Virus record (IMG/VR): IMGVR_UViG_3300012665_001805
Length of the DNA: 61,471 nucleotides
Reading direction: 5' to 3' (one strand)
Origin: a virus
Taxonomy: Duplodnaviria > Heunggongvirae > Uroviricota > Caudoviricetes
Shown here: piece after piece, positions 10,740 through 31,479 of the stretch
Layout: each line of letters begins with the position of its first letter
Numbering within the stretch: position 1 is the first letter of the stretch
Translations under genes and position numbers: made by a program
The notes under the pieces: generated by a model
The model's database searches: none
Told to the model about the DNA's origin: nothing
What the model saw: the letters and a program-made list of their open reading frames with translations, nothing else

Positions 10740-13700
10740 TTAGAAATTTGAATTTATTGTTACTTTATTTGCTAATTTATTTTTAGGTAATTCAAATATA
10801 ACTTCTACACCCAATGTATTATTAGTTGTTGCGTATAATAATTTATACCAAGCTGAATTGAATGCTTCTTTGTCTTCAGCGTTTAAGTTTTTGTATTGGG
10901 ATTGAGGACCATCGGTTTCAAACCATTCTTTAAGTCTTTTTATTGCACCTTCTTCATCATCCCCACCAAGAGCTTCAACTCCTTTATAATTTGTAAATAA
11001 AGGTTTTTCAGTATTTGAATAATTATCTTTTAATTGATAAATTTGAGAAAGATACCATATTAAATTATTAAACGCTTTAGCCGAATCTTCTGGTGTTGTG
11101 ACTGAAACATTAGATGATGCTGGTAGTTCTTTGTATTCATCTTTGATTCTAAACCAGTATACCATATATGGAGTTTCTGGTCTATTTCGATATACCATAG
11201 TTGAGCCATAATTATCTTTAACTGAAGTAGACCATCCTTTACCATTGTATTGGTTTCCAGTGTATATTTGGGCATGGAATCTATATTTTCCAGATGCATT
11301 TCCACGAGGGGCAGGTGTTGCATAATAAATTACTACATCACCATAATTAGCTTGGGTTGTAATGTAATCTACTTTATCGGCTGCTGATTTTACAGGAACA
11401 TTCGTTGCAACTGGTTGTAATGATTCAGGGGTATAAATTCCTAATTCATTAAGATGATTTCTTAATACTTCAGAATGGGCATCATTTCCACCTTTATTAG
11501 TGCCAGGGAATGAGGATTTTTTAGTAAGTTTTCTTGCTAATTCTTCAGCTATAATATAAGTATACCCTCCACATTTGCCTAATGCTTCTCCTTTACTTTT
11601 AAATATTGCAATAGCTGCTTCTTTAGCTGCTTTTTCTAATTTAGAATTAGTTTCTGATTTAGCTGGTGTTGGTAATGGGCTTTGTTCTCCTGTAGTACCA
11701 TCATATGATAAAGTTTCAGAGTCTGCTGTTTTTACAATTTGTGGAGGAAGAGTTGAGTCTTCTTGTTTAATTTTGCTTGATGCTTTTATAATTTTTTTAA
11801 CTCTGGTTTTTAATTCGGTGTAAGGTACAATTTTTTTACCATTTTCCTCGTCTTGAGCAATTACTACAGTCTCAATACTGGTTTCCCAATCATGTCCCGA
11901 AAGTTTATGATTAACTCCTTTGATAATAAATTTAAGAGAGTTTGGGTAGTTTTTAGGAAGGAAATTTGTATTAACATTTATTGAATTATATATCTTAATT
12001 CCAGACATTCCATCAAATGTTAAAGATAAACTAATTGGGATAAATCCAATAGTAGGGGACGCATAATTAGGAACGTCTTTTTGAATTTGTGTGTGGCAAT
12101 ATTTATAAAATTCAGTAACTGTAGATATATTTCTATCTATAATTTCTCCATTAATAGCACATGAATCAGGGTTTGAGACATCATCAGGAATATCTTGGGG
12201 TGCAGTTAATCCAAAGGCAGCAAAACGTTTATTCCAAAATTCTTGAACATACAATACTGAAGGGTCATTGTCAGTTTTATTAGAAGCTACTGTGGTTGCA
12301 GGAACAAATTCTTCTTTGAAAATATCAATTAATCCTTTATTCCATTTAGAAAACATTGTATTTTCTGTTCCTTTAACATAACCTCCTGCTGTTGAACCAA
12401 CAGATGCCATTGTAGCAAAATCATTGGTTATTTCAGTTTTTATATTAAAATTACGAACAAAGTTAGATTGGTTATTTCTAGAAGGATCATAACCATATAA
12501 TTCAAAAATATAATCAGTTGCTGGTTTACCTTCAGAATAACTAGCGTCTATAATTTTTATTGTATTTGTGTCTTCATCGACTATGGGTTCTAGGTTATTT
12601 ACACCCCCTAAAACTCGGTTTAATTCAGTACATATAGCTTGTAAAACTTCAAATATTGGAACATTTCCATCTTCATCTTGTTTTTCCCCAAGAATTCGAT
12701 TTACCATATTACAATTAAGATAAATATTCATTATTCTTGAATATCCATCTTTCTCATTTTTCCAATCAGGTAATGATAAATGATATTTTTTTGAATTAAT
12801 TGGTTCTTTATCATTTTTTACAATACAAACTCTAGGATCTAAAGACACATGATATGGGAAAGTATACATTCTATTACCTTCAACATTTGTATCTATAGTA
12901 ATAATAGGAGTATTAGCATTTTTAATTTTAAAAATTACTTTAGCGTTAATAAAATCAAGTAAATGTTTGAATCGTACATAAAAACCTTCATCATGGAGTA
13001 TGTCTTCATCACCCTCTAAATTATTGTAACTAAAATATACAAAATCATTTTTTTTCTGAGGAGTATCAAATCTTAATTTAAAAGTTTGGTTATAGAATAT
13101 AGTTCCACTTCCATCAGAATGATATATTGTATTAGAAATTTCTCCATCATCTTCTTGAAGATTGGAGATTATTTTTGATCTTTGATCTTCGTTAGCAAAT
13201 GCTATTTTTTGATTATACTTTGTTATTTGTATTGGGGCCTCTTTTGATGGAGCTGCTATGTATTTTGTTCTAACAGGTAAAAGTGTTCCATCACCAGTTC
13301 CAAATTTACTAGGACAATCATTAGTTTCCCAGTAACCTGAATTTTTTGAATCTATTAGGTATAATTTTTGAATAAAGAAATATGCCGAGATAAAATTACT
13401 TACAGGGCCTGGGGGTGTTTTACCTGAGGTAGATCCTTCAGCTTCTGGGTCTTCTGTAGTATCATCAAATATTTTATATGCTTCATTGATGAATTGAGAG
13501 ACATTTGAAGGTGGAGTTACATTACAGGATAAAGATTCAACAACATCTCCTAAACTAATAAGATTTATTTGAATATCATATGTTCCGTCTTGAGAAAATG
13601 TCCAACTAAAATTGGTTACTTTACAAAGTAAACCATCATAGTTTCCATCTTTTGCTGCTCTATATTGTTCTATTTGAGGTAAGAAACCCTGGTATGAAGA

Positions 13701-14312
13701 TTTTTTCCATTTATCATTAAAAAATCCTTCTTCATTTTCTATTAATGTGCTATAATCTGATTTGTAGCTTCCTTTATTATCAATGTATGAAGACCATCCC
13801 CATTCAAGAAACATAGTGTATCCTATTCGTAAATACAAAACATCTAATATTCTAAATTGCTCAGAGCTATAACATTTAATATTTACTGTTGCTTTTTTGA
13901 TTGAACCCCTATTTTCACATTTTATCTCAGTATCGGTAATCCCGGGCATGGGAACCATACCAAATTCACTGGAGTTATTTCCTGATAGGTTAACATCATA
14001 TACACCAGTTCCACGTCCGTATACCTTTGTTCTTGGGTTTAATTTTTTATCTTTAAGATTAGATAAACCACTAAATAAGACATATTGTTTTGCTAACGTA
14101 GCCCAACTACTTGCTTTAATACCTGATTCAGAAGGAAATTTATTTCCAATTCTAATACCAGAGGCCATTTTTACCCAAGCTGTTTTTGAATTCAAATAAG
14201 ATAATTGCTCAGGAGTACGATTTTCGTTTACTCCTGACCCATGGGCTTTTTGTCTTTGGTTAATTTGACCTCGTACGTATTTTCTAAATGGTTCTCCTAT
14301 TATGTTAGGCAT
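10740..14312 (-). CDS. Baseplate hub/tail-tip protein paralog B with C-terminal CHAP/NlpC-P60-like peptidase
   Basis: About 820 N-terminal aa paralogous to 14348..17587, ending in a gp27/gpD-like barrel (LTFDGMSGIKIYN...KGVNHKLSGHDWETSI); tip has GKCGGY (Cys), YGDVVIY and FHAQIYTG (His). Confidence 0.7.
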   Translation of the reverse strand: MPNIIGEPFRKYVRGQINQRQKAHGSGVNENRTPEQLSYLNSKTAWVKMASGIRIGNKFPSESGIKASSWATLAKQYVLFSGLSNLKDKKLNPRTKVYGRGTGVYDVNLSGNNSSEFGMVPMPGITDTEIKCENRGSIKKATVNIKCYSSEQFRILDVLYLRIGYTMFLEWGWSSYIDNKGSYKSDYSTLIENEEGFFNDKWKKSSYQGFLPQIEQYRAAKDGNYDGLLCKVTNFSWTFSQDGTYDIQINLISLGDVVESLSCNVTPPSNVSQFINEAYKIFDDTTEDPEAEGSTSGKTPPGPVSNFISAYFFIQKLYLIDSKNSGYWETNDCPSKFGTGDGTLLPVRTKYIAAPSKEAPIQITKYNQKIAFANEDQRSKIISNLQEDDGEISNTIYHSDGSGTIFYNQTFKLRFDTPQKKNDFVYFSYNNLEGDEDILHDEGFYVRFKHLLDFINAKVIFKIKNANTPIITIDTNVEGNRMYTFPYHVSLDPRVCIVKNDKEPINSKKYHLSLPDWKNEKDGYSRIMNIYLNCNMVNRILGEKQDEDGNVPIFEVLQAICTELNRVLGGVNNLEPIVDEDTNTIKIIDASYSEGKPATDYIFELYGYDPSRNNQSNFVRNFNIKTEITNDFATMASVGSTAGGYVKGTENTMFSKWNKGLIDIFKEEFVPATTVASNKTDNDPSVLYVQEFWNKRFAAFGLTAPQDIPDDVSNPDSCAINGEIIDRNISTVTEFYKYCHTQIQKDVPNYASPTIGFIPISLSLTFDGMSGIKIYNSINVNTNFLPKNYPNSLKFIIKGVNHKLSGHDWETSIETVVIAQDEENGKKIVPYTELKTRVKKIIKASSKIKQEDSTLPPQIVKTADSETLSYDGTTGEQSPLPTPAKSETNSKLEKAAKEAAIAIFKSKGEALGKCGGYTYIIAEELARKLTKKSSFPGTNKGGNDAHSEVLRNHLNELGIYTPESLQPVATNVPVKSAADKVDYITTQANYGDVVIYYATPAPRGNASGKYRFHAQIYTGNQYNGKGWSTSVKDNYGSTMVYRNRPETPYMVYWFRIKDEYKELPASSNVSVTTPEDSAKAFNNLIWYLSQIYQLKDNYSNTEKPLFTNYKGVEALGGDDEEGAIKRLKEWFETDGPQSQYKNLNAEDKEAFNSAWYKLLYATTNNTLGVEVIFELPKNKLANKVTINSNF

Positions 14313-14347: not shown

Positions 14348-17300
14348 TTAAAATTGGTCTTTATATTTATTCCACCAATCTTGTCCTGGGGGTTGGGCAA
14401 TTGAATTTTTCTTGTAATTATATGCCCAACCATATACGTTATTTCCCCCACCAGTACTTCTCATTACAAAACTTCCACGACTGCCATCTTTAGAATATTT
14501 ACCAGCAGATGTAGATTGGTTACGTTTTTCAACACTCCCTTGGGTAATACTTAAAAAGTCTGTTCTACCTTGAATAAAGGATTTTGCTTGATTCTGATAT
14601 GCTGGGTCTCTTATGGTATCATATACCTCTTTAAGAGCTGCTATAGCTTTTTCATTAGTTTCATAACCAGGTTTTGTGGATTTTACAGCAGCGATAGCTG
14701 TAGCTTTACTGCTAATATTTTTCCATACTGTAGATGTTACTTGAGTTCCTTTAGCAAACGCTGGTTCGTACTGCCCATTAGATTTTACTACGGCTGCTAT
14801 TGAAGTTGAATATGCTCCTGATCCTACTCGATTGTAGATGGATTGGGCTACATCAGCGCGTCCTTGAGGATCTCCATCTTCAAAAATACAAATAGTTAAT
14901 AAAGACCAGAAATCAGCATCACCTCCTAACACAGCGTTACCTGTAGTAGCAGTTGGGGATGGACCATATGTTGAATTATCAAATTGGGTATCTCTTGGTG
15001 GTGTAACAATATCTGGTGGTAAATCTGGGTTTTCTGCGGCTATTTTAACTTGGGCAGTTTTAATAATTTTTTTAACTTCACTTTTTATTTGTTTATAACT
15101 AAGAAAAGGTTTACCATCTTTATCTGTATTTTGAGCAATTACTACTGTATCAATACTGGTTTCCCAATCATGTCCTGAAAGTTTATGATTAACTCCTTTT
15201 ACTATAAAGTTAAGTGATTCGGGGTATCGTTTAGGTAAAAATGAAGTATTGACATTTACAGCATTGTATATTTTAATTCCTGACATTCCATCAAATGTTA
15301 GGGATAAACTTATAGGGATAAAACCTGCTGTAGGAGATGCATATCTAGACTCTATTAATTGGATTCTTGATTGGCAATATTTATAAAATTCAGAAACAGT
15401 TTTAACATTTTTATCTATGATTTCTCCGCTAATGGCACAAGCATCAGGAGTTCCTACATCACTTGGGATATCTTGGGGTGCGGTAAGACCAAATGAAGCA
15501 AAACGTTTATTCCAAAATTCTTGAACATATAGATTTGATGGGTCTTTTTCATCTTTAGTAGTTGCAGATCCAACGGCCGGTAAAAATTCTTCTTTGAATA
15601 TATCAATTAACCCTTTATTCCATTTAGAAAACATTGTGTTTTCAACTCCTTTAACGTATCCACCAGCGGTTGAACCAACAGATGCCATAGTGGCAAAATC
15701 ATTAGTTATCTCAGTTTTAATAGCAAAATTACGGACGAAATTTGATTGGGTTTGGGATTTATTATATCCAAAAAGTTCAAATGTGTATGTTTTCTTTGCT
15801 GGAGGGGCATAACTAGCGTCTAGGATAGATAAAGTATTGGTATCTTCATCAAGAACAGGCTCTAAATTATTGACACCACCTAAAGCAGTATTTAATTCAT
15901 TACATATTGTTTGAAGTACCTCAAATAATGAAATATTACCTTCGTCATCTTGTTTTTCGTTCAAAATACGACTTACCATATTACAATTAAGGTAAATATT
16001 CATTGTATATCCAAACCCAGAAGCTGATTTCCAATGTGGTAATTTAGTGTGATATTCTTTGGTATTGATTGGTTCAGTATCATTTCTAACAATACACACT
16101 CTAGGATCTAATGATACTTGATAAGGAAATATATACATTTTATTATCCTTAGTATTGTTGTTTATCTGAATTATAGGTGTGTCTGTACTTTTTAATTTAA
16201 AGAGTAATTGGGTTCTGATAAAGTCTAGTAAATGTCCAAATCTAATATAGAATCCATCTTCATTTAATAAATCCTCATCATCTTCTAAAGTATTATAACT
16301 AAAGTAAACAAAATCATGTTTTCCTTGGTTACTATCAAAATTTAATGTAAATTTCTTTGAATGGGCTAATATGCCACTCCCATCACTATTTTGAACACTT
16401 CCCTCAGCAAATATAAATCCTCCTTCTTCAGAAATGTTTTGAATTAGTTCAGATTTTTGTTCTAAAGTTGAGTAAGATGTTCTTTCATTTGTTGAGAATG
16501 CTGTTAATTCAGCCTCTTTAGAGGGTTTTTTAATGAATTTTGTTCTAACTGGGATTGGTGTTTTTTTGGAGGAGAATGTACTTATACAATCATTCGCTTT
16601 CCAATATTCATTATTTGCTTCATTAATTAAGTATAACTTTTGAATAAAGAAATAAGCTGATAGCCAATTTCCTACAGGCCCAGGTGGTACTTTACCAGAA
16701 GATGATCCTTCGGCTGATGGGTCTTCTGCTTCATCGTTATAAATTTTATATGCGGCGTTTATAAAATCAGATATTTTGGATGGGGGAGTAGTATTTAATG
16801 TTAATGATTCAACAACATCTCCTAAACTAATTAAATTTAATTGGATGTTATAAGAACCATCTTGATTAAAATCCCATGAAAAATTAGTTACTTTACAAAG
16901 CAATCCATCATAATTTCCACTTTTATCAGCTCTATATTGTTCTATTTGAGGTAAAAAACCTTGATAAGAAGATTTTTTCCATTTATCATTAAAAAATCCT
17001 TCTTTTGATTCTATTAAAGTAGAGTAATCTGATATTAAGTTACCATTGTTGTCAAGAAATGGAGACCAACCCCATTCAAGAAACATAGTATATCCTATTC
17101 TTAAATAAAGTACATCAAGAATTCTAAATTGTTCTGCACTATAACATTTAAAGTTTATAGTAGCTTTTTTGATAGAACCTCGGTTTACACATTTTATTTC
17201 GGCATCTGTTATTCCAGGCATTGGTACTAAACCAAATTCACTTGAATTGTTACCTGCTAAGTTAACATCATATATTCCAGTTCCGTTCCCATATACTTTT

Positions 17301-17587
17301 GTTCTTGGATTTAATTTACCATCCTTAAGTTGGGACATTCCACTAAATAAAACATATTGTTTTGCTAATGTAGCCCAGCTACTTGCTTTAATACCCGTTT
17401 CGGATGGAAATTTACTTCCTATTTTTATACCTGAGGCTAATTTTACCCAGGCTGTTTTGGAATTTAAATAAGATAATTGTTCAGGAGTTCTGCTAGTTCC
17501 TAAAGTACCTGACCCATGAGCTTTTTGTCTCTGAGTAATCTGATTAGATACGTATGGTCTAAAAGGTTCTCCTATTATATTAGGCAT
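14348..17587 (-). CDS. Baseplate hub/tail-tip protein paralog A with C-terminal SleB-like (Hydrolase_2) cell wall hydrolase
   Basis: Same N-terminal body as paralog B; tip has ICIFEDGDPQGRADVAQSIYNRVGSGAYSTSIAAVVKSNGQYEP, matching the SleB E...G..AVA..I.NRV...I..VV...QF pattern. Confidence 0.72.
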   Translation of the reverse strand: MPNIIGEPFRPYVSNQITQRQKAHGSGTLGTSRTPEQLSYLNSKTAWVKLASGIKIGSKFPSETGIKASSWATLAKQYVLFSGMSQLKDGKLNPRTKVYGNGTGIYDVNLAGNNSSEFGLVPMPGITDAEIKCVNRGSIKKATINFKCYSAEQFRILDVLYLRIGYTMFLEWGWSPFLDNNGNLISDYSTLIESKEGFFNDKWKKSSYQGFLPQIEQYRADKSGNYDGLLCKVTNFSWDFNQDGSYNIQLNLISLGDVVESLTLNTTPPSKISDFINAAYKIYNDEAEDPSAEGSSSGKVPPGPVGNWLSAYFFIQKLYLINEANNEYWKANDCISTFSSKKTPIPVRTKFIKKPSKEAELTAFSTNERTSYSTLEQKSELIQNISEEGGFIFAEGSVQNSDGSGILAHSKKFTLNFDSNQGKHDFVYFSYNTLEDDEDLLNEDGFYIRFGHLLDFIRTQLLFKLKSTDTPIIQINNNTKDNKMYIFPYQVSLDPRVCIVRNDTEPINTKEYHTKLPHWKSASGFGYTMNIYLNCNMVSRILNEKQDDEGNISLFEVLQTICNELNTALGGVNNLEPVLDEDTNTLSILDASYAPPAKKTYTFELFGYNKSQTQSNFVRNFAIKTEITNDFATMASVGSTAGGYVKGVENTMFSKWNKGLIDIFKEEFLPAVGSATTKDEKDPSNLYVQEFWNKRFASFGLTAPQDIPSDVGTPDACAISGEIIDKNVKTVSEFYKYCQSRIQLIESRYASPTAGFIPISLSLTFDGMSGIKIYNAVNVNTSFLPKRYPESLNFIVKGVNHKLSGHDWETSIDTVVIAQNTDKDGKPFLSYKQIKSEVKKIIKTAQVKIAAENPDLPPDIVTPPRDTQFDNSTYGPSPTATTGNAVLGGDADFWSLLTICIFEDGDPQGRADVAQSIYNRVGSGAYSTSIAAVVKSNGQYEPAFAKGTQVTSTVWKNISSKATAIAAVKSTKPGYETNEKAIAALKEVYDTIRDPAYQNQAKSFIQGRTDFLSITQGSVEKRNQSTSAGKYSKDGSRGSFVMRSTGGGNNVYGWAYNYKKNSIAQPPGQDWWNKYKDQF

Positions 17588-22836: not shown

Positions 22837-23148
22837 TTATTGATATTTTACAGGTCTTTTAGCTTCACTAGCTTTTTGCATTAATTCTGGGGTTTTTATT
22901 GTACCATCTGAATTGATAACTGTTTGTTTTCCTGGTTTACCTTTATTTTCTATGATTGCTTTTTCTTCAGCAAAATGGTCTTGCATTTGTTTAAAAGTAA
23001 AGCGTCGAAGCCAGATTGGCATATTGTAAACAGTATGCCAATCGTAACCTCCATTGCTATGGAAAACTATTTGATGTATTTGTGTAAACAATGAGGCTCT
23101 TACTAGAGCCGAATCATCAGATATCAGGCCAAAAAAAGTTGATACCAA
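22837..23148 (-). CDS. Tail assembly chaperone, downstream (T / gp51-like) frame, probably expressed by frameshift
   Basis: YNMPIWLRRF resembles the gp51-like NMxPWER motif; only a TTG start inside the upstream gene; overlap contains a T7 run. Confidence 0.65.
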   Translation of the reverse strand: MVSTFFGLISDDSALVRASLFTQIHQIVFHSNGGYDWHTVYNMPIWLRRFTFKQMQDHFAEEKAIIENKGKPGKQTVINSDGTIKTPELMQKASEAKRPVKYQ

Positions 23149-23851
23149 TTGAGACAGGGATTCTATCGATACTTCCGTCGGGAAAAAAAGTTAGATCAAC
23201 ATCGGGTTGAACTTCTTTAATATATTCTCTAAGCGCCCTGGAGTCTTTGGCTAATAGATAATTATCTACAAATTCTCGAATGTCTTTTGTTTCTCGGCTT
23301 CCCTCCACTGAAGTGATAAGGTGTTTCATTCGAGTGGATAATTCAGGGGATGAGTCTTTATTAATTTTCTTTAAACCTTCTAATTCACGGCTGATGTTTT
23401 GTTCATCTTTATGTGTTAAAAGTTTAAAAGTAACTTTATTTTTTGAGTGGGGTAAAGTAAATGAGAATTCGTTTGTACGAGATGTAAATAATTCTTCTTT
23501 AATTTCTTTATTTTCTAGTTGGGATAAATCAACTGTATATTCTTCACCAGCATAATCAAATTTATACTCAGCACCATATCCTAAAATACGAGCAGCAACC
23601 ATGATTGCGTTTTTATCACCGATTAACAATTCATCAAAATTAATTTTGGATACAATGATAGATTTTAATAATTTATCTAATACTGTACCATTTCTGATAT
23701 ATGATTGGTTGGTTAGAATATCTTCTTCCTTAGCGGTCATGTATTTGATTTCAATTGTACCTTTTGCTAATTCAGAATCTTCAGGGTAAAGTAAACCTTT
23801 AGATGGTAATTCAACGGTCTCCGTTGGTAATTTGAATTTTGATTCTTCCAT
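23117..23851 (-). CDS. Tail assembly chaperone / baseplate hub assembly protein (gp26-like, G frame)
   Basis: LPSKGLLYP, IKYMTAKEEDIL, GDKNAIMVAARILGYG, ends GINFFWPDI; lies between tube and TMP. Confidence 0.8.
   Translation of the reverse strand: MEESKFKLPTETVELPSKGLLYPEDSELAKGTIEIKYMTAKEEDILTNQSYIRNGTVLDKLLKSIIVSKINFDELLIGDKNAIMVAARILGYGAEYKFDYAGEEYTVDLSQLENKEIKEELFTSRTNEFSFTLPHSKNKVTFKLLTHKDEQNISRELEGLKKINKDSSPELSTRMKHLITSVEGSRETKDIREFVDNYLLAKDSRALREYIKEVQPDVDLTFFPDGSIDRIPVSIGINFFWPDI
23131..23137 (-). other. Candidate programmed frameshift site (AAC TTT TTT TGG)
   Basis: Seven T on the coding strand where the G frame and the +1 frame overlap. Confidence 0.6.
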
Positions 23852-23892: not shown

Positions 23893-24264
23893 TTAAAGAG
23901 TAGTAATATTGTCAGGATTTACATTAAATGACAATACTCCTTTAATCTTTAATATTTCTTTGCGTATTTCATCCATTTTAGAGCGATCGAAACCACCTTT
24001 TACAATCCAAGGATGTCCATCAACTTTAATAGTTAATACAGTTTGAAATTTCTCAGTATTTTGTTCACTATATTCCATTGGTTCTTTTGCAGACGCTACT
24101 GTAATACCAGGCAATGAACGAATATCAGAAAATATTTCTTTCTGAGGTCGTAGTTTAATGTTAGTAATGATCATACCAACCATTTTAAATTTGTCTTGGT
24201 ATTCTTCATTAAGCTTTTTACTTAACTCTTCTCTTACTAACGTACGTAAATTGTCTAATTTCAT
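23893..24264 (-). CDS. Hypothetical protein with LxxLVREEL...LNE leader
   Basis: 123-aa ORF, own upstream motif. Confidence 0.65.
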   Translation of the reverse strand: MKLDNLRTLVREELSKKLNEEYQDKFKMVGMIITNIKLRPQKEIFSDIRSLPGITVASAKEPMEYSEQNTEKFQTVLTIKVDGHPWIVKGGFDRSKMDEIRKEILKIKGVLSFNVNPDNITTL

Positions 24265-24269
24265 ATGGT

Positions 24270-24277
24270 TATAAATA
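24270..24277 (-). promoter_or_regulatory. Putative late promoter motif
   Basis: Exact TATTTATA, 5 nt before ATG at 24264. Confidence 0.55.
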
Positions 24278-24282
24278 TTGTG

Positions 24283-26487
24283 TTATCTAATAAGATTAAC
24301 ATTTCCTGTAACTGAATATTTGTGACCGTTATTTTTATCGCCAAATTGAATATCAAAAACATATGACCCTGAAGAACATGGTTTATTATTGTATGTTCCA
24401 TCCCAATAAGATGTAGCATCATATGTTTCAAATATAATTTCTCCCCATCTGTTATAAATTAATGCTTTAAAATCATATGGATCAAATCCACTTGTAAATA
24501 CAAATTTTAAAACATTATTGTATTCATCTCCATCAGGTGTAAATGAGTTTGCTATATAAAATAACAATTCAGGACATTGAATTACAGACACATATGCTAC
24601 TTGTGGATTAGAAACACATCCATTAGCGTAATGTACTACTGATACTTGATGAGTACCAACAGAATCCCATACAAGGGTTTGGGTTAATGAATTTTGAATA
24701 TATTGTTGATTACCCCAAGTCCATTCATTATAGCCAGCAGGATTACCTATAGCATTCCAAGTAATACTAGCTGTATCTAATTCACATAATTCAAAATAAG
24801 TATTGTGTGGTATAATTGAATCAATTGTTGGAGTAGGATAAACAGTAATTAAAGTTGTATCATCAAACATACACCCACTAAGTGTATATTCATAAATAAT
24901 GGTATCAAGTCCAACAGCTGTTCCGGGAGTAAAATCAAATCCAACCATACCCGGTCCGGAAATAGTACCTCCTAGTGGGGATACTTGTAAAGTAACAAAT
25001 TCATCATATTCACAGAACGGACCAACAGGATCTATGGTAGGTAAAACGTTTAAAACGTTTAAATCGATAGACAAAGGTAAGCTAGGGCAGTTGTTGCTGT
25101 TATAACCTGTTACTTGAATCGCGCCAGGAATGAATCCACTAGATATAGAACTCCAATTCACATTAATTGTATCAGTTCCTTGTCCATTAAATATATTTCC
25201 AACAGAAGACCATTGATATGTGTATCCTGCTTGGAAAGGTACTGAATATATTTCGTTTGGTGAGTTAAAGCAAACTGTATCACTAAATGTAATTGGTCCT
25301 ATAATTGGAATTGGTGGGTTTATTAAAGTAACTACTCCACTTACGTTACATCCTTGTGAATCTGTAATAGTATAGTTATAGATACCTCCACATAAACTAG
25401 TTGGATTAAATCCAGTAGGTCCATTCCAAGATATAGTTTGTACTCCACTACCCCCATTAGGACTAATCATAATTTCACCATCACAGCTTAAATTACAAGT
25501 AGGATTAATAGCAAATACTGTTGGTAATGGTAAATTAGGAGGACCAGGTTGAACAAATACTGTATCAGGTCCTAACCCAGCTATAGCATTACAAGTATTC
25601 CATCCTGCATTACAAATAGGGTAAACAAATTTACAAGTATATTGAGCACCTATAGCAGGTGGGGTAACAGTAAGGGTAGGTCCTGTTCCTATTGGGTTTG
25701 GATTTCCTACTCTATACCAAGTTAATACAGGATTAACTGTTGGACCATTAGGTACCCATCTCCAAGCATCATTATTTGCAGTCCAAACAGTTGAGTTTCT
25801 ACCAGGTACAGGTATTCCTATAGTACCAGCAGCATTATGAATACCTTCAACAGAAGTACCTCCTTGCCATACTTGACAATCGGGTTTATCTTGAATATAA
25901 TTGTCTATATAATTAGTTGATTCATGAATAACAATATGGAATGTTCCTTGATTTCCCGTACAACTAAACATAGGTACACCAACCCAACTTACAATTAATT
26001 TTCTACATGGAGCTACACCTACAGTTTGATATTTGATTTGACCCCCAATTCCGGGATGCCAATCTTGCCAAGGTCCCATAATACAATTTTTAGGAACTAA
26101 AGCATTACCTGTTGGGATAGTTTGAGAAGTAAAAGTTGTGGGTTGTCCTCCAGAGAATGAAATCCATCCATTTGAACCTATATAAAATTGAGAATATGTT
26201 TGTCCAAAGAAACAAAATGTAAATCCTATATTAAATGGTCCTTGTTGAGAATCATCTGTCATGAAGACATTAGTTCCATTATTGACTTGAGCAACATAAG
26301 GAATGCTAGTTACAGCATAATCTGTTGTTTGTTTGGGACCCGGACCACCAGGACCACACTGACTTAAATCTGCGGTTAATGTAGTTGATCCTACACCACA
26401 AGGTAAAAATTGATCAGGTCCTAGAGCAGGACAATATTGACTATATCCTATATTAGCCAGTAAAAGAAATATTAGTAAGTTTTTCAT
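24283..26487 (-). CDS. Secreted adhesin-like protein with T9SS type B (gliding motility-associated/CHU_C) C-terminal sorting domain
   Basis: Signal peptide MKNLLIFLLLANIGYS|Q; NIDO-like region (DDSQQGPFNIGFTFCFFG...SNGWISF); SprB-like repeat (TCNLSCDGEI...YTITDSQGC); PKD-like repeat; CTD FYIANSFTPDGDEYN...IYNRWGEIIF...WDGTYN...GSYVF...GNVNLIR. Confidence 0.88.
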   Translation of the reverse strand: MKNLLIFLLLANIGYSQYCPALGPDQFLPCGVGSTTLTADLSQCGPGGPGPKQTTDYAVTSIPYVAQVNNGTNVFMTDDSQQGPFNIGFTFCFFGQTYSQFYIGSNGWISFSGGQPTTFTSQTIPTGNALVPKNCIMGPWQDWHPGIGGQIKYQTVGVAPCRKLIVSWVGVPMFSCTGNQGTFHIVIHESTNYIDNYIQDKPDCQVWQGGTSVEGIHNAAGTIGIPVPGRNSTVWTANNDAWRWVPNGPTVNPVLTWYRVGNPNPIGTGPTLTVTPPAIGAQYTCKFVYPICNAGWNTCNAIAGLGPDTVFVQPGPPNLPLPTVFAINPTCNLSCDGEIMISPNGGSGVQTISWNGPTGFNPTSLCGGIYNYTITDSQGCNVSGVVTLINPPIPIIGPITFSDTVCFNSPNEIYSVPFQAGYTYQWSSVGNIFNGQGTDTINVNWSSISSGFIPGAIQVTGYNSNNCPSLPLSIDLNVLNVLPTIDPVGPFCEYDEFVTLQVSPLGGTISGPGMVGFDFTPGTAVGLDTIIYEYTLSGCMFDDTTLITVYPTPTIDSIIPHNTYFELCELDTASITWNAIGNPAGYNEWTWGNQQYIQNSLTQTLVWDSVGTHQVSVVHYANGCVSNPQVAYVSVIQCPELLFYIANSFTPDGDEYNNVLKFVFTSGFDPYDFKALIYNRWGEIIFETYDATSYWDGTYNNKPCSSGSYVFDIQFGDKNNGHKYSVTGNVNLIR

Positions 26488-26506
26488 AAGCCCAATATAT
26501 AAAAGG

Positions 26507-26537
26507 AAAATAAAAGCCCCAAATTTCTTTGGAGCTC
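26507..26537 (-). terminator. Intrinsic terminator after tail tube gene
   Basis: Minus strand AGCTCCAAA-GAAA-TTTGGGGCT followed by TTTATTTT. Confidence 0.75.
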
Positions 26538-26564
26538 TTAATTTTTTATTGTTTTGTTCTAGTA

Positions 26565-27053
26565 TTAGAAATTCAATACACAGTAATCTGGTTGAACTGT
26601 TACTTGGATGTTTACTGGTGTACCATCATCATCCCAGTTGTAATCACCAAAATTAACTTCTGTAATTACGGCTCCTTTAATCACCCATTCAGAAACGATA
26701 TCACCTACAGGTCCGATTACATTGAATGTAATATCTTTCTTGTAGAAATCAGAATAACCATCTCTACCTGTTACTGATTCGTGTCCTAAACGTACCCATT
26801 CCATTACTGCTTGTGCACCTGATGGAGTGATTGATTCGTACATTGTAAACTGAATAGTATTCCAAATGGTTTTTCCTTTTACATAACGTTGAACGTTGAT
26901 ATGATTAAGGGCAACTGCAGTTTGTGTTAAAGATACAGCTCCAACTCCTTTTACCAAATATGATGGAATACCATCCATATAAAGGATAAAGCGGTTACTT
27001 TGTTTTGGTTCAAACGCTGTGTAAAATATTTCGTTCGGATTTAAAATTGCCAT
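26565..27053 (-). CDS. Tail tube protein (gp19-like)
   Basis: FEPKQSNRF, INVQRYVKGK..W, AQAVMEW, DGYSDFYKK, FGDYNW...QPDY; directly after the sheaths. Confidence 0.92.
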   Translation of the reverse strand: MAILNPNEIFYTAFEPKQSNRFILYMDGIPSYLVKGVGAVSLTQTAVALNHINVQRYVKGKTIWNTIQFTMYESITPSGAQAVMEWVRLGHESVTGRDGYSDFYKKDITFNVIGPVGDIVSEWVIKGAVITEVNFGDYNWDDDGTPVNIQVTVQPDYCVLNF

Positions 27054-27078: not shown

Positions 27079-27086
27079 TATAAATA
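27079..27086 (-). promoter_or_regulatory. Putative late promoter motif
   Basis: Exact TATTTATA upstream of the tube gene. Confidence 0.6.
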
Positions 27087-27103
27087 TTAAATATTTCTAT
27101 CTT

Positions 27104-29275
27104 TTATCCAGGGAATTGAGCTCCTGTTGGTAATAAGATGAAATCTAATGAAATGAATTCAGCTGTACGTGTTGGTTGGATATAAATCTGTCCTACTAAT
27201 TGGTTATTATCAATTACTGCTGGTCCGTTATTAGCTTCGTCCATTACTACTTTGAAGGCATATAATCCTTGTTTTTGTTGAATAGATTCTAAATATGGAG
27301 TTACTCTTGAAACAAATGATGTTCTTGTTGCAATTGTATTTTGTTCGAATACTACTGTATCTGAAATTTGGCGGATATAAGCTTTTAACTCAATTAACAA
27401 ACGTCTAACATTTACACGATCAAGAGCAGAAGCTGCTTTTTGTAATGTTTTTTGTCCGAATACTACAACTCCTTGTTTAGGTAATGTAGCTAATGGGTTA
27501 ATGTTATTAGCGTATAAGTTATCTCTATCTCCTTGAGTTAATTTGTATTTAGTATATGATACTGTAGACAAACCACCTCTGTTAATACCTGCTGGTGCGA
27601 ACCATGGAGCTGAGATTTTATCGTTATTAGCATATACACCTGGGATAACTGTTGATGCTGGTGACCAAACTTGTTTTCCAGTTGATGAATCAGCTAAACG
27701 AACCCAAGGCCAATATGCTGCAGCGTATGAGTTATCAATACTTTGAGCAGCTGTAATTGTGTTAGCTAAATCTCCAGAGTATTCAATTAAATCTACTACA
27801 TATAAACTATCTCCTCTATCTTGAGTATTAGTAATAATGTTATTTACTTGTGTTGAATGTAAATTACTAAATAATCCAGGAGTTGAAATTACATTGTATT
27901 GGTAAAATTCTCTATTGTTAAGAAGGCTAATCATATTGTTGTAATCAGCTCCAACTAAACCTTGAGTATTATTTTGAGTAATATTTTCGTTTAATAAAAT
28001 ATTTGCATTTGTTGTCCCTGTTGCTCCGTTGAATGAACTACTTTGAGCAATTGGTAATGATGCAGTATATTGTGGTTGTGGTTGACCGTTAGCATCTAAA
28101 TAATTAGGTGTATTGTAATTTACAGTTTTAACTCTAATGTAACGTGATTTGTTTGGATAATCACCTGTTACATCCATTTGATTTGTTACTGAGTTATATG
28201 ATAAACTTTGATTACCAATTACTTTAGAAACGTAACGTGGTGAGTTTGGATCTAAACTTACGTTATTCCAAGATTCTAATACAATTTTACTAGCAGCATT
28301 ATCATCTCCTCTTCTAACGATAATATTAAATGTTCCTGATCCAGTATTTGGATTTGTTAATTCCCATCTAACGTTATCTACACTTCCTGATACTAATGCT
28401 CCTAATGTTTGGGAACCTGAGTTATTCATGATGATTCCTTCAGATAGTGTTTCTAAAGTAAATGCTACAGATGAAACTCCATTAGTACCTCCTGAAAGAG
28501 TTGAACTTGAAACAAATTGGCTATTTGCAGATCCTGCAAAAGCATATCCGCCTGGAACAAATCCATATCTAATAATAGTGCCGTTTATAGCTGATGATGA
28601 AACTTTACTTGTAATTGTAAGGAAATCTGTTGATGGGACATATGATCCTGAGAATATTGATCCGATTTCGTTGGTAGTTCCAAAGAATGAAGCTGTAGTT
28701 AAGAATCTAGCGATATTAGCTCCAAATTCATCTACTGTTGGATTGAAAGACATACTAACATATCCTACATTGGAATTGGCATCATAATAATCATATCCAA
28801 AAGTACTTCCTTGTAACCAATAGTCAGTATAAGTTCCTGCTACTGATGGGATACTAAATTTAATAGTACCACCATTTACACCTCCAGCATATGAAGCAGT
28901 GTAACTTGCTGAAATGAGGAATGATGCTGCTGGGAAAGTACCACCTGTTGAGCTAACATTATTGTTTACATTACTTGTTGCAGGTGTATAAGATCCACTT
29001 ACTACACGAGCTACTAATAATGAAGTACCTCCATAGTTAAAGTAGTTGTAAGCTGCTAATGAAGTAAGGTAAGAATAAGAATCTCCACCACTAATGAATG
29101 AATCTCCAAATATTGTTTGAAAGTCAGAATAAGAAGTAACGAATGTAGGAACTTCAACAGGACCTTTAACTGTTGGTCCTATGATAGCAGCACCCGCTTG
29201 TGTAGGTAATCCTACTAAGAATGTGTTGTCTATTTCACTAATTGTTACCCCAGGAGAAATTGAAAAATTTGCCAT
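27104..29275 (-). CDS. Tail sheath protein, copy 2 (gp18-like)
   Basis: SPGVTISEID, IIGPTVKGP, YWPW, WFAPAGINRG, NNINPLA, VVFGQKTLQ, LDRVNVRRLL, QPTRTAEFI. Confidence 0.95.
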   Translation of the reverse strand: MANFSISPGVTISEIDNTFLVGLPTQAGAAIIGPTVKGPVEVPTFVTSYSDFQTIFGDSFISGGDSYSYLTSLAAYNYFNYGGTSLLVARVVSGSYTPATSNVNNNVSSTGGTFPAASFLISASYTASYAGGVNGGTIKFSIPSVAGTYTDYWLQGSTFGYDYYDANSNVGYVSMSFNPTVDEFGANIARFLTTASFFGTTNEIGSIFSGSYVPSTDFLTITSKVSSSAINGTIIRYGFVPGGYAFAGSANSQFVSSSTLSGGTNGVSSVAFTLETLSEGIIMNNSGSQTLGALVSGSVDNVRWELTNPNTGSGTFNIIVRRGDDNAASKIVLESWNNVSLDPNSPRYVSKVIGNQSLSYNSVTNQMDVTGDYPNKSRYIRVKTVNYNTPNYLDANGQPQPQYTASLPIAQSSSFNGATGTTNANILLNENITQNNTQGLVGADYNNMISLLNNREFYQYNVISTPGLFSNLHSTQVNNIITNTQDRGDSLYVVDLIEYSGDLANTITAAQSIDNSYAAAYWPWVRLADSSTGKQVWSPASTVIPGVYANNDKISAPWFAPAGINRGGLSTVSYTKYKLTQGDRDNLYANNINPLATLPKQGVVVFGQKTLQKAASALDRVNVRRLLIELKAYIRQISDTVVFEQNTIATRTSFVSRVTPYLESIQQKQGLYAFKVVMDEANNGPAVIDNNQLVGQIYIQPTRTAEFISLDFILLPTGAQFPG

Positions 29276-29288
29276 TTTATCTTTTTAT

Positions 29289-29296
29289 TATAAATA
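29289..29296 (-). promoter_or_regulatory. Putative late promoter motif
   Basis: Exact TATTTATA upstream of sheath copy 2. Confidence 0.6.
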
Positions 29297-29321
29297 TTAA
29301 TTTTTTTTCTAAAATGTATTA

Positions 29322-31430
29322 TTAAGCAGGAAAAGTTGCTCCTGTTGGCAATACATTAAAGTCTAATATAATGAATTCAGCTGTTCTAGTTGGTTGTAAA
29401 TAAATTTGACCTACTAACTGATTATTGTCTATTACATTAGGTGTATTATTTGATTCATCCATTACAACTTTAAACGCAGTTAAACCTTGTCTTTGTTGAA
29501 CTGATGCTAGGTATGGATTTACTTGGGATAAAAAGTTATTTCTAGTAATTACGTTATTTTGTTCGAATACTAATGTATCTGCTACTTGAGAAATATATGA
29601 TTTTAATTCAATCAATAGACGTCTAACATTTACACGATCTAAAGCACTTGCTTTTTTCTGTAATGTTTTTTGTCCGAATACTACTACACCTGTATTAGGA
29701 AAAGTAGCAATTGAATTTACATTGTTTTCATAAAGTAAATCTCTATTACCTTGAGTTAAATTTCTTTCAGCACGGATAACATTACTTAATACTCCTCTAT
29801 TTGTACCTGCAGGTGCATACCATGGTTCTGCTACTGAATCATTAAATGCATATACTGAAGGGATCATTGTTGAAGCAGGTACCCAAACTTGTTGTCCTGA
29901 ATTAGGATCAATTGTTTGTAACCAAGGCCAATAAGCTGCAGCATATGAAGTATCATATGTAAGAGCATTTGTTGTTACAGGAACAATGTTTGATCCGTAT
30001 CCTACAAGATCTAATACTGTCATTGAATCTCCTCTTCCTTGAACAGTACTAATTAAACTTGTTACTGCACTTATATGTAATGGGTAGTTTGTTGGATCAG
30101 CAACTAAACCAGGTGCTGTTAATAAATTGTATTTGTAAGCATCTTGGTTAGATAATAAAGCTATTGATTGAGTGTAATCATTTGCTGAAAGTCCTTGGAT
30201 ATTTGTATTTGAAATATTTTCATAATACGCTCCAGATACACCTGTTGGTAAATTTTTTCCTGATGCACCATTAAATGTACCACTTGAAGTAACCGGAATA
30301 GATCCAGTATATTCTGGTTTCGGATTTCCAGTATTATCAAAGTATGTTGGTGTTGTATAATTTACTTTTTTAACTCGTATATAACGAGATTTATTGATGT
30401 AATTACCATTCAATTGGACAAAATATTCTCCAGTTGATGAGTCATATACTATTTCTTCTGATTGGTTACCAATTACTTTTTCAATATAATTTGAAGCGAA
30501 TGGATCTAATGATAAGTTACTCCATGATTCTAAAATAGAAGGAGATGCTGTTGAATCATTACCTTGTCTTACTATTAAAGTAAATGTACCATTATTAGTA
30601 TTTGGAGCAGATATTTGCCATCTGTAATTATCTGAAGTGCCATTAGCTAATGTTCCATTAGCATATAATGATCCGGAGCTATTCATTGATTCACCTTCAG
30701 AAAGTGTTTCTATGATAAATGCTTCAGTATTTGTACCTCCAGTAAAGTTTACTATAGTACTTCCAGAAACATAGTAATATGAATTACCTGCTAATCCATT
30801 AATATTTTTAGATGTTAAAACTATACTTGGGGAAGATGTACTTGCTGTAATATAATTTAATAAAGTGCTATACTGTGATAAAGAATGACTAGCATTAAAT
30901 ACTGCAGATGATGTGGCTACATAATTTGCTACTGTAGATGAAGCAAATGATGATGTATTTATATAAATTGTTGTTGTAGTATTAGCTGCTGTTGATCCAG
31001 TGTAATACAATGTGACTCCATTTATATTTAATGAAGCGGATCCTACAGCTGCTACACTAGCAGACACATATGTTAAATTAATGGTTGAAGATGCAGAAGT
31101 TAATACATTTGCCGTTGGTATAGTGGATGATGTAGCCGGTGAGAAATTTCCACTAACTACACGTGTTACCAATAAAGAATTACCTCCGTTATTAAAGTAG
31201 TTATATGCCGAAATAGAAGTTAAGTAAGTAAATGTTTGACTTCCACTTAAAAATGTAGATCCAAATTTATTTAAATAATCACTATATGTGGTACATATCG
31301 TTGGGATACCTACTTTTCCTTTAACTGTTGGGCCTATAATAGCAGCACCTGCTTGAACAGGAGCTTGAGTAATAAATGATTGATCGTTCTCTATAGCTAA
31401 TACACCAGGTGATACAATTGTTTCTGCCAT
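29322..31430 (-). CDS. Tail sheath protein, copy 1 (gp18-like)
   Basis: SPGVLAIEND, IIGPTVKG, YWPW, WYAPAGTNRG, VFGQKTLQ, LDRVNVRRLL, QPTRTAEFI. Confidence 0.95.
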   Translation of the reverse strand: MAETIVSPGVLAIENDQSFITQAPVQAGAAIIGPTVKGKVGIPTICTTYSDYLNKFGSTFLSGSQTFTYLTSISAYNYFNNGGNSLLVTRVVSGNFSPATSSTIPTANVLTSASSTINLTYVSASVAAVGSASLNINGVTLYYTGSTAANTTTTIYINTSSFASSTVANYVATSSAVFNASHSLSQYSTLLNYITASTSSPSIVLTSKNINGLAGNSYYYVSGSTIVNFTGGTNTEAFIIETLSEGESMNSSGSLYANGTLANGTSDNYRWQISAPNTNNGTFTLIVRQGNDSTASPSILESWSNLSLDPFASNYIEKVIGNQSEEIVYDSSTGEYFVQLNGNYINKSRYIRVKKVNYTTPTYFDNTGNPKPEYTGSIPVTSSGTFNGASGKNLPTGVSGAYYENISNTNIQGLSANDYTQSIALLSNQDAYKYNLLTAPGLVADPTNYPLHISAVTSLISTVQGRGDSMTVLDLVGYGSNIVPVTTNALTYDTSYAAAYWPWLQTIDPNSGQQVWVPASTMIPSVYAFNDSVAEPWYAPAGTNRGVLSNVIRAERNLTQGNRDLLYENNVNSIATFPNTGVVVFGQKTLQKKASALDRVNVRRLLIELKSYISQVADTLVFEQNNVITRNNFLSQVNPYLASVQQRQGLTAFKVVMDESNNTPNVIDNNQLVGQIYLQPTRTAEFIILDFNVLPTGATFPA

Positions 31431-31452: not shown

Positions 31453-31460
31453 TATAAATA
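31453..31460 (-). promoter_or_regulatory. Putative late promoter motif
   Basis: Exact TATTTATA upstream of sheath copy 1. Confidence 0.6.
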
Positions 31461-31479
31461 TGGTGTATTTCAAACTAAA

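Follow-up and report, generated by a model that had tools for sequence, protein, structure and literature searches.

We analyzed a 61,471-nucleotide stretch of Caudoviricetes DNA (IMG/VR record IMGVR_UViG_3300012665_001805; hereafter the window), in which a gene located between the tail tube gene and the following tail genes, termed the cargo gene, is probably a phage-borne, moron-like insertion whose predicted product would be a substrate of the host type IX secretion system (T9SS) displayed on the infected cell. An earlier reading of this DNA (the original prediction) had described a complete 734-residue open reading frame (ORF) at this position, and both the ATG (at 26487) and the stop codon (24283–24285) are present. 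The window comes from a large myovirus and spans its structural and replication region; every gene is on the minus strand. Its structural genes encode the large terminase, portal, major capsid protein, adaptor, fibres, two sheath paralogues, the tube, tape-measure-like and gpW-like proteins and big baseplate proteins, and its replication genes a ribonucleotide reductase, an exonuclease, a RecA-like protein and a DNA polymerase. The terminase, portal, capsid, sheath, tube, tape measure and baseplate genes thus identify the contig as phage, and the GC content of the cargo gene does not stand out from that of its flanks. The coordinates of the features are collected in Table 1.

The assignment to the T9SS is carried by the signals at both ends of the protein. 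The original prediction had seen an intact type B C-terminal sorting domain (CTD) at about 24283–24560, and the HMMER check resulted in matches above the curated cut-offs for both relevant profiles, TIGR04131 covering residues 645–734 (model positions 3–85 of 85; E 1.1e-12, 48 bits, cut-off 35) and Pfam CHU_C (PF13585) covering residues 645–722 (E 5.6e-12, 46.1 bits, cut-off 27), so that the profile places the domain at nucleotides 24286–24555. The five conserved motifs A–E of this domain are needed for the secretion of type B cargo (PMC12618676). Precomputed CHU_C annotations were present in 120 of 120 homologues among the matches listed, and the TIGR04131 cut-off was passed in all five phage records searched. 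At the amino terminus, the predicted signal peptide reads MKNLLIFLLLANIGYS followed by Q, with an MK start, a 12-residue hydrophobic core and G-Y-S directly ahead of the glutamine. This residue, Gln17, is invariant in 24 of 24 aligned relatives and matches the Bacteroidota 'Q-rule' for signal peptidase I substrates, in line with what had been proposed; the signal peptide was judged from sequence, hydrophobicity and family invariance.

In addition to these two signals the protein carries further marks of an exported product. All eight D-(S/T)-(A/I/L/V/M/T) glycosylation motifs listed in the original prediction were found again, compared with 1.9 ± 1.3 in shuffled sequences (fraction reaching eight, 0.0005), and individual sites are kept in the relatives, namely residue 308 (GPDTV) in 24 of 24, residue 403 in 21 of 24 and residue 571 in 19 of 24. 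The 'many Cys' of that reading amount to 23, 19 of them invariant across the 24 relatives. Together, the invariant Gln17, the 19 invariant cysteines and the enriched motifs fit an extracytoplasmic protein and not one that folds in the cytoplasm. Such a set of features would suit Sec exit, periplasmic modification and T9SS anchoring, and would suit assembly into virions in the cytoplasm badly.

We compared the tail module with that of the closest isolate by sheath similarity (44% identity), the Flavobacterium phage vB_FspM_immuto. There, the sheath and tube genes and the terminator hairpin are followed directly by the homologue of the 244-residue protein, a small gene and the tape measure, and both the cargo gene and the 123-residue gene adjoining it in the window are missing from this otherwise collinear module. 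The empty site between tube, terminator and next gene bears out the proposed insertion in the tail operon. As three contigs (L009, L011 and L019) carry the cargo gene without the 123-residue gene, the two represent separate lineage-specific additions. The position behind the tube terminator, likewise claimed originally, is confirmed by an intrinsic-terminator-like hairpin (26540–26511) that 10 related contigs share, two of them (L009 and L037) with altered stems that still pair through compensatory changes. The gene thereby shows the hallmarks of a moron: it is present or absent between conserved flanks, bounded by a terminator and dispensable for the gene order of the module.

Full-length relatives exist at 42–93% identity, with more than 1200 proteins in the databases, many of them at 60–93%. 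IMG/VR yielded 148 matching stretches, and in the 80 of these in which neighbourhoods were compared, the order of tube, cargo, (123-residue) and 244-residue genes was found in about 35 contigs. Within this syntenic set, the tube and the 123-residue protein are mostly 80–98% identical (tube about 67% in the L009 group), whereas the cargo protein is only 51–91% identical, mostly 56–70%. In the other contigs, about 45, no tail gene of the window occurs within up to 10 kb of the cargo gene; in three contigs of 219–292 kb the gene is about 100 kb away from the sheath and tube genes, and the 635-kb phage LR745206.1 has it in surroundings that yielded no such tail gene either. The tail-operon insertion therefore stands for one lineage and does not extend to the family, which elsewhere keeps the gene far from tail genes. 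Clustering of the neighbours resolved at least four distinct contexts with no neighbour common to all, and these differing neighbourhoods without a constant companion point to the gene itself as the unit of selection. A megablast search of the 12-kb region against GenBank phages gave no match, and tblastn of the cargo protein retrieved only two uncultured huge phages. Four IMG/VR phage records, of which two have an estimated completeness of 99–100%, contain one type B CTD gene each, and LR745206.1 contains four ORFs with type B CTD matches (loci L083–L086; 1207, 833, 732 and 127 residues), the match of the 127-residue ORF being below the cut-off.

A maximum-likelihood tree of 144 head domains, calculated with a 'quick' method and midpoint-rooted, so that no direction of transfer is claimed, grouped all viral copies (65 from IMG/VR, the huge phage and the window) into one clade with an SH-like approximate likelihood ratio support of 97, together with a single copy from a metagenome-assembled genome (MAG). 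Copies from tail-syntenic and from other contexts are interleaved within this clade, indicating that the gene moved between phage lineages or positions several times. Region-wise ratios of nonsynonymous to synonymous substitution rates (dN/dS), determined as medians over 21 tail-syntenic orthologues, point to purifying selection on every part of the protein: the head, at 0.17, is the most conserved (mean identity 82%), and the CTD has a value of 0.28 and the stalk one of 0.34. The value for the CTD indicates that the sorting domain is upheld by selection in phage genomes.

The nearest branches outside the viral clade are proteins of Flavobacteriales and Crocinitomicaceae MAGs, and immuto, the nearest isolate phage, infects Flavobacterium; the host is most likely a freshwater bacterium of the Flavobacteriales/Crocinitomicaceae type within the Bacteroidota. 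The bacterial relatives usually comprise 820–4600 residues with a head identity of 40–63% and, with one exception, fall outside the viral clade. As titled, 77 of the 80 cellular relatives are from Bacteroidota MAGs and three from Akkermansia sp. (L106, L110) or Competibacteraceae (L099). The exception, L091, is the only cellular copy nested in the viral clade and resides on a 241-kb contig of a Crocinitomicaceae MAG. That MAG as a whole yielded no sheath gene, and the closest PorP gene on the contig is about 60 kb off. This copy may mark a phage-to-host transfer or point to the host family.

The original prediction had stated that the gene has no adjacent PorP/SprF-like partner, and this agrees with our profile searches. 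No match to TIGR03519 (PorP/SprF) was obtained in the ten window ORFs of 272–423 residues or in five whole phage records. The same search detected 10–21 genes in each of five Bacteroidota MAGs used as positive control, which renders the negative result for the phage records meaningful. A custom PorP hidden Markov model built from 20 of these MAG genes likewise matched no six-frame ORF of at least 150 residues in the window or in 82 viral loci. The accompanying hint that a missing partner is unusual did not hold, as the custom model matched in only 3 of 80 bacterial homologue loci (flanks of up to 8 kb on each side); with the other 77 equally devoid of PorP, the cargo subfamily appears to be generally 'orphan'. 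Of the 12 type B substrates of Flavobacterium johnsoniae, nine have an adjacent cognate gene and three are orphans that share the shuttle Fjoh_1677, itself an orphan (PMC12618676). By analogy, the phage cargo most likely relies on an orphan-type PorP/SprF-like shuttle of the host. Two of the three bacterial loci with a PorP/SprF-like gene (L108 and L109, Bacteroidia/Bacteroidota MAGs) have it about 1.5 kb downstream in convergent orientation, not in the usual same-strand downstream position, and in the third (L115) it is about 6 kb away.

The head was predicted by AlphaFold2 (AF2; residues 17–325) as an all-β domain with a mean predicted local distance difference test score (pLDDT) of 92.9 and a predicted template modelling score of 0.87. 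Foldseek searches of this model against AlphaFold Swiss-Prot yielded the NIDO regions of alpha-tectorin, SNED1, nidogens, plexin-domain (PLXDC) proteins and 'mesh' over head residues 49–240, with E values of 8e-6 to 1e-3 and template modelling scores by query of 0.37–0.47. The 'NIDO-like' of the original prediction thus denotes a possible resemblance in structure and not one at the level of the profile, since Pfam NIDO (PF06119) did not match residues 17–325 at E ≤ 1, nor did any other Pfam model match the head; PF06119 is carried by one Atlas cluster of head look-alikes. Judging from the model, 'NIDO-like' is a fair structural label and not a family assignment. A PDB sequence search with the head gave chance-level matches only, Foldseek against the PDB nothing at E ≤ 0.001, and VIA-align only generic immunoglobulin (Ig)-like folds (Z about 7), which aligned with the frame strands and not with the head core. 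A search of BFVD matched a few uncharacterised phage proteins. By exhaustive HMMER search, the head is found in 8862 representative clusters (896 at E ≤ 1e-30), usually at the amino terminus of long proteins, and nine of ten head-bearing proteins that were scanned end in CHU_C, five of these nine with PKD, SprB or Ig_7 repeats between head and CTD. From these sequence comparisons, the head is seen as an unstudied amino-terminal domain shared by a highly abundant class of type B surface proteins in Bacteroidota.

For the stalk, the predicted PKD-like repeat was recovered above its cut-off (PKD_6, residues 396–465, 29.4 bits; cut-off 25), whereas the SprB-like repeat (residues 328–358) remained sub-threshold with 16 bits against a cut-off of 28. 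The full-length AF2 model, which is poor in the head owing to a shallow alignment and was not used for structure searches, shows stalk and CTD as confidently all-β, with about four Ig-like domains followed by the CTD and pLDDT values of 75–92 in the stalk region. Relatives of 658 residues (L004, P0004 and others) lack exactly one stalk domain, corresponding to residues ~318–390 of the window protein, and longer relatives of about 820 residues also occur (L076, L078–L081). The forms of 658, 734 and about 820 residues indicate that the stalk changes in length by insertion or deletion of whole Ig-like domains.

Taken together, these features suggest the following route to the cell surface. Production of the cargo would depend either on read-through of the tube terminator or on a weak start belonging to the gene itself; the protein would then be transported across the inner membrane by Sec and cut before Gln17. 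In the periplasm, disulfides would form and the conserved D-T-V sites would probably be O-glycosylated. The SprA translocon would then recognise the type B CTD and, by analogy with the F. johnsoniae orphans, pass the cargo to a host PorP/SprF-like shuttle encoded elsewhere. Finally, the protein would be held on the outer membrane with the NIDO-like head pointing outward on a short Ig-like stalk.

Several observations weigh against this display reading. In this lineage the cargo gene is part of the late structural operon, which leaves its product little time at the surface before lysis, and a position in the tail operon would also suit a virion part. The head core has no solved homologue in PDB sequence or structure searches. 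In its favour, contigs from freshwater RNA libraries of related phages (88–97% identity) cover parts of the cargo gene and bridge the junction of tube, terminator and cargo (e.g. 26326–26898 and 26140–26597); these libraries may include DNA, and the contigs are from relatives and not from this exact phage, so that they establish no more than the natural existence of the junction and its occurrence in RNA libraries. An apparent drop in contig depth from the sheath and tube genes to the cargo gene was rejected as a signal of expression level or timing, because depths of contigs give no ranking of genes, the runs contain relatives and not this phage, and stretches without coverage carry no meaning.

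The location of the gene would be readily explained if it encoded an ordinary virion protein, i.e. a tail decoration or fibre-like Ig protein derived from a host adhesin and assembled in the cytoplasm, with the signal peptide and the CTD left over or reused structurally. About 35 contigs do have the gene between the tube and the following tail gene, phage decoration proteins often carry Ig-like domains (the matches to Hoc and tail-protein Ig domains obtained here being generic), and the RNA-library contigs weakly suggest co-transcription with the tail genes. We consider this explanation quite improbable, since none of the PHROG structural families matches the cargo protein, the tail module of immuto does without the gene, the terminator parts it from the tube gene, and other phage lineages carry it about 100 kb from their tail genes among small uncharacterised genes; moreover, the signal peptide with Gln17, the 19 cysteines and the CTD are under purifying selection, as leftovers would not be. 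Far less credible still is a recent capture of a host gene, or an assembly chimera, devoid of any phage role. The build of the protein is that of a host surface protein, and the MAG copy L091 is nested among the viral ones, but the same junctions recur across many samples in dozens of contigs, both are bridged by contigs from DNA and RNA libraries, the GC content equals that of the flanks, and the viral clade is old and diverse (42–93% identity) with dN/dS well below 1. A chimeric host insert, which the original prediction had itself named as an alternative, is in our view ruled out by the synteny of about 35 contigs, the viral clade and the purifying selection.

The export signals themselves are shared with a further explanation, in which the protein leaves the cell by Sec and T9SS and acts away from it as a soluble binder or decoy, either free or carried by vesicles or lysis debris, for example by coating the receptors of neighbouring cells or binding particles. 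Late expression in this lineage would let lysis free most of the protein, and the stalk is short compared with the bacterial relatives of 1000–4600 residues. We nonetheless regard an off-cell role as unlikely, because studied type B CTD proteins remain bound to PorP-like proteins at the cell surface (PMC9143113) and the sequence suggests no release site. Display on the infected cell hence remains the reading that we prefer.

Given display, the cargo could quite possibly serve as an adhesin altering what the infected cell sticks to, such as particles or other host cells, and thereby aid the spread of progeny. Somewhat less probably, it might interfere with T9SS-anchored receptor adhesins, resulting in superinfection exclusion or in protection of the progeny from dead-end adsorption; other purposes account for the remainder. 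The receptor masking, jamming of gliding and cell aggregation put forward in the original prediction are guesses at this stage. T9SS-delivered surface proteins of Bacteroidota function in gliding, adhesion and polymer degradation. In Flavobacterium, phage resistance has been mapped to the gld, spr and T9SS genes, with SprB and RemA as presumed receptors (PMC9804748), which makes both receptor interference and transmission-favouring adhesion reasonable ideas. The late-operon position argues mildly against an early exclusion function, and this position is not conserved in the family. As a more specific and doubtful proposal, the head may mark phage-specific 'infected-cell adhesins' that ride on the host orphan shuttle, either binding neighbours or particles so that progeny are released near hosts, or displacing receptor adhesins, i.e. 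superinfection exclusion by competition for the secretion pathway. If true, an infected-cell adhesin or receptor displacement of this kind would be a new viral exploitation of a phylum-specific secretion and gliding apparatus. Beyond this, a phage clade (apart from L091) that is under purifying selection and spans lake phages of about 170 kb to more than 600 kb suggests that remodelling of the T9SS surface is a common strategy. The cargo gene also provides a concrete and easily cloned test object, both for the handling of a foreign type B CTD by a host orphan shuttle and for the ligand of a head common to thousands of bacterial surface proteins.

Table 1 Features of the cargo gene and its neighbours in the window.
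Feature	Position	Strand	Evidence
T9SS type B cargo gene (P0001), complete, 734 residues	24283..26487	(-)	ORF, profile matches and full-length relatives
Predicted Sec (signal peptidase I type) signal peptide, residues 1–16, followed by Gln17	26440..26487	(-)	Sequence, hydrophobicity, Gln17 invariance
Head, NIDO-like β domain nested in an Ig-like frame, residues 17–320	25528..26439	(-)	AF2, Foldseek, selection
Stalk, about four Ig-like domains, residues 321–644	24556..25527	(-)	Profile matches, full-length AF2 model
Type B T9SS C-terminal sorting domain, residues 645–734	24286..24555	(-)	TIGR04131, CHU_C
Intrinsic-terminator-like hairpin and T run between tube and cargo genes	26511..26540	(-)	Sequence; conserved in relatives
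Tail tube gene, upstream neighbour	26565..27053	(-)	phrog_4542, E 2.9e-22; 56% identical to immuto gp230
123-residue gene, downstream neighbour	23893..24264	(-)	No family match beyond a chance-level tail-terminator match
244-residue tail gene ('baseplate hub'/chaperone-like), far border of the insertion	23117..23851	(-)	phrog_150; 61% identical to immuto gp231

Many genes of the window share a short motif at their start regions. ATATTTATA occurs 16 times as an exact copy, against 4.7 expected, with 14 copies on the coding strand, mostly a few bases upstream of start codons (e.g. 24270–24278, 27079–27087, 29289–29297 and 31453–31461); its near-leaderless geometry makes it a candidate late-promoter or initiation motif. 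The first of these copies belongs to the 123-residue gene and lies 5 nucleotides before it. The original prediction had reported the cargo gene to be without this phage motif, and indeed the exact ATATTTATA is missing upstream of it, a degenerate ATATATTGG occupying the same position. A scan for sigma-70 sites found promoter-like sites to be no commoner than in shuffled sequences, and a possible Bacteroidota-type TTTG...TAnnTTTG can be read by eye within the 24 nucleotides before the cargo ATG.

Elsewhere in the tail region, two full-length sheath paralogues (both phrog_23; 27104–29275 and 29322–31430, minus strand; 723 and 702 residues) precede the single tube gene. Related contigs retain the two sheath genes, whereas phage immuto has one. 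The baseplate region contains two very large adjoining proteins (14348–17587, 1079 residues, and 10740–14312, 1190 residues; minus strand), the former with a match to the cell-wall hydrolase family Hydrolase_2 (SleB-like) near its carboxy terminus, just under the cut-off.

We finally compared the phage cargo with known systems. The statement of the original prediction that no phage system of this kind had been characterised proved too strong, as type A T9SS cargo has been described in 'Cryophage' (PMC7468147) and well over a hundred viral contigs contain the present type B family. Type A CTDs on enzymes and on a PA14 protein of Cryophage were reported by Bellas et al. (2020, Nat Commun), who proposed that this cargo hijacks the host system for secretion or display, with possible effects on superinfection or competition (PMC7468147). 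Both cases consist of phage genes for proteins with a T9SS C-terminal sorting domain. They differ in that the Cryophage cargo is of type A on enzymes and PA14, restricted to one phage and highly variable between its variants, whereas the present family has a type B CTD and a non-enzymatic NIDO-like head on an Ig stalk and spans several phage lineages. Beyond that study, our literature searches returned nothing on phage type B cargo or on the function of NIDO-like heads in T9SS proteins.

Among bacterial systems, the orphan type B substrates of F. johnsoniae (PMC12618676) share with the phage cargo the lack of an adjacent PorP/SprF-like gene and offer a shuttle encoded elsewhere as working model; they are chromosomal bacterial genes, however, and the phage protein was compared with them at the level of the CTD. 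SprB/SprF of F. johnsoniae and PG1035/PorP of Porphyromonas gingivalis resemble it in signal peptide, repeats and type B CTD, with anchorage by a PorP-like outer-membrane protein (PMC9143113). SprB is about ten times longer and adjoins its cognate sprF; the phage protein, by contrast, has another kind of head, only a single weak SprB repeat and no partner. The closest likeness in architecture is found in the bacterial CHU_C proteins with NIDO-like heads from Flavobacteriales, Crocinitomicaceae, Sphingobacteriaceae and Chitinophagaceae MAGs, in which the same head is likewise followed by Ig/PKD/SprB repeats and then CHU_C, mostly with no PorP gene alongside; their greater length and, save for L091, their place outside the viral clade set them apart.

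On the phage side, envelope morons such as Bor and Lom of lambda, Llp of T5 and SieA of P22 use Sec or lipoprotein routes in Proteobacteria. Like them, the cargo gene is an accessory gene next to a terminator in a structural operon and would encode an envelope protein that alters the surface of the infected cell; unlike them, it would depend on a phylum-specific secretion system and its sorting domain. Phage T9SS cargo is not new in principle, and it is the type B, widespread form that is new. To this comparison the present locus adds a fixed insertion between the tube and the next gene with an empty site for reference, a conserved terminator boundary, region-wise dN/dS values and a polymorphic stalk.

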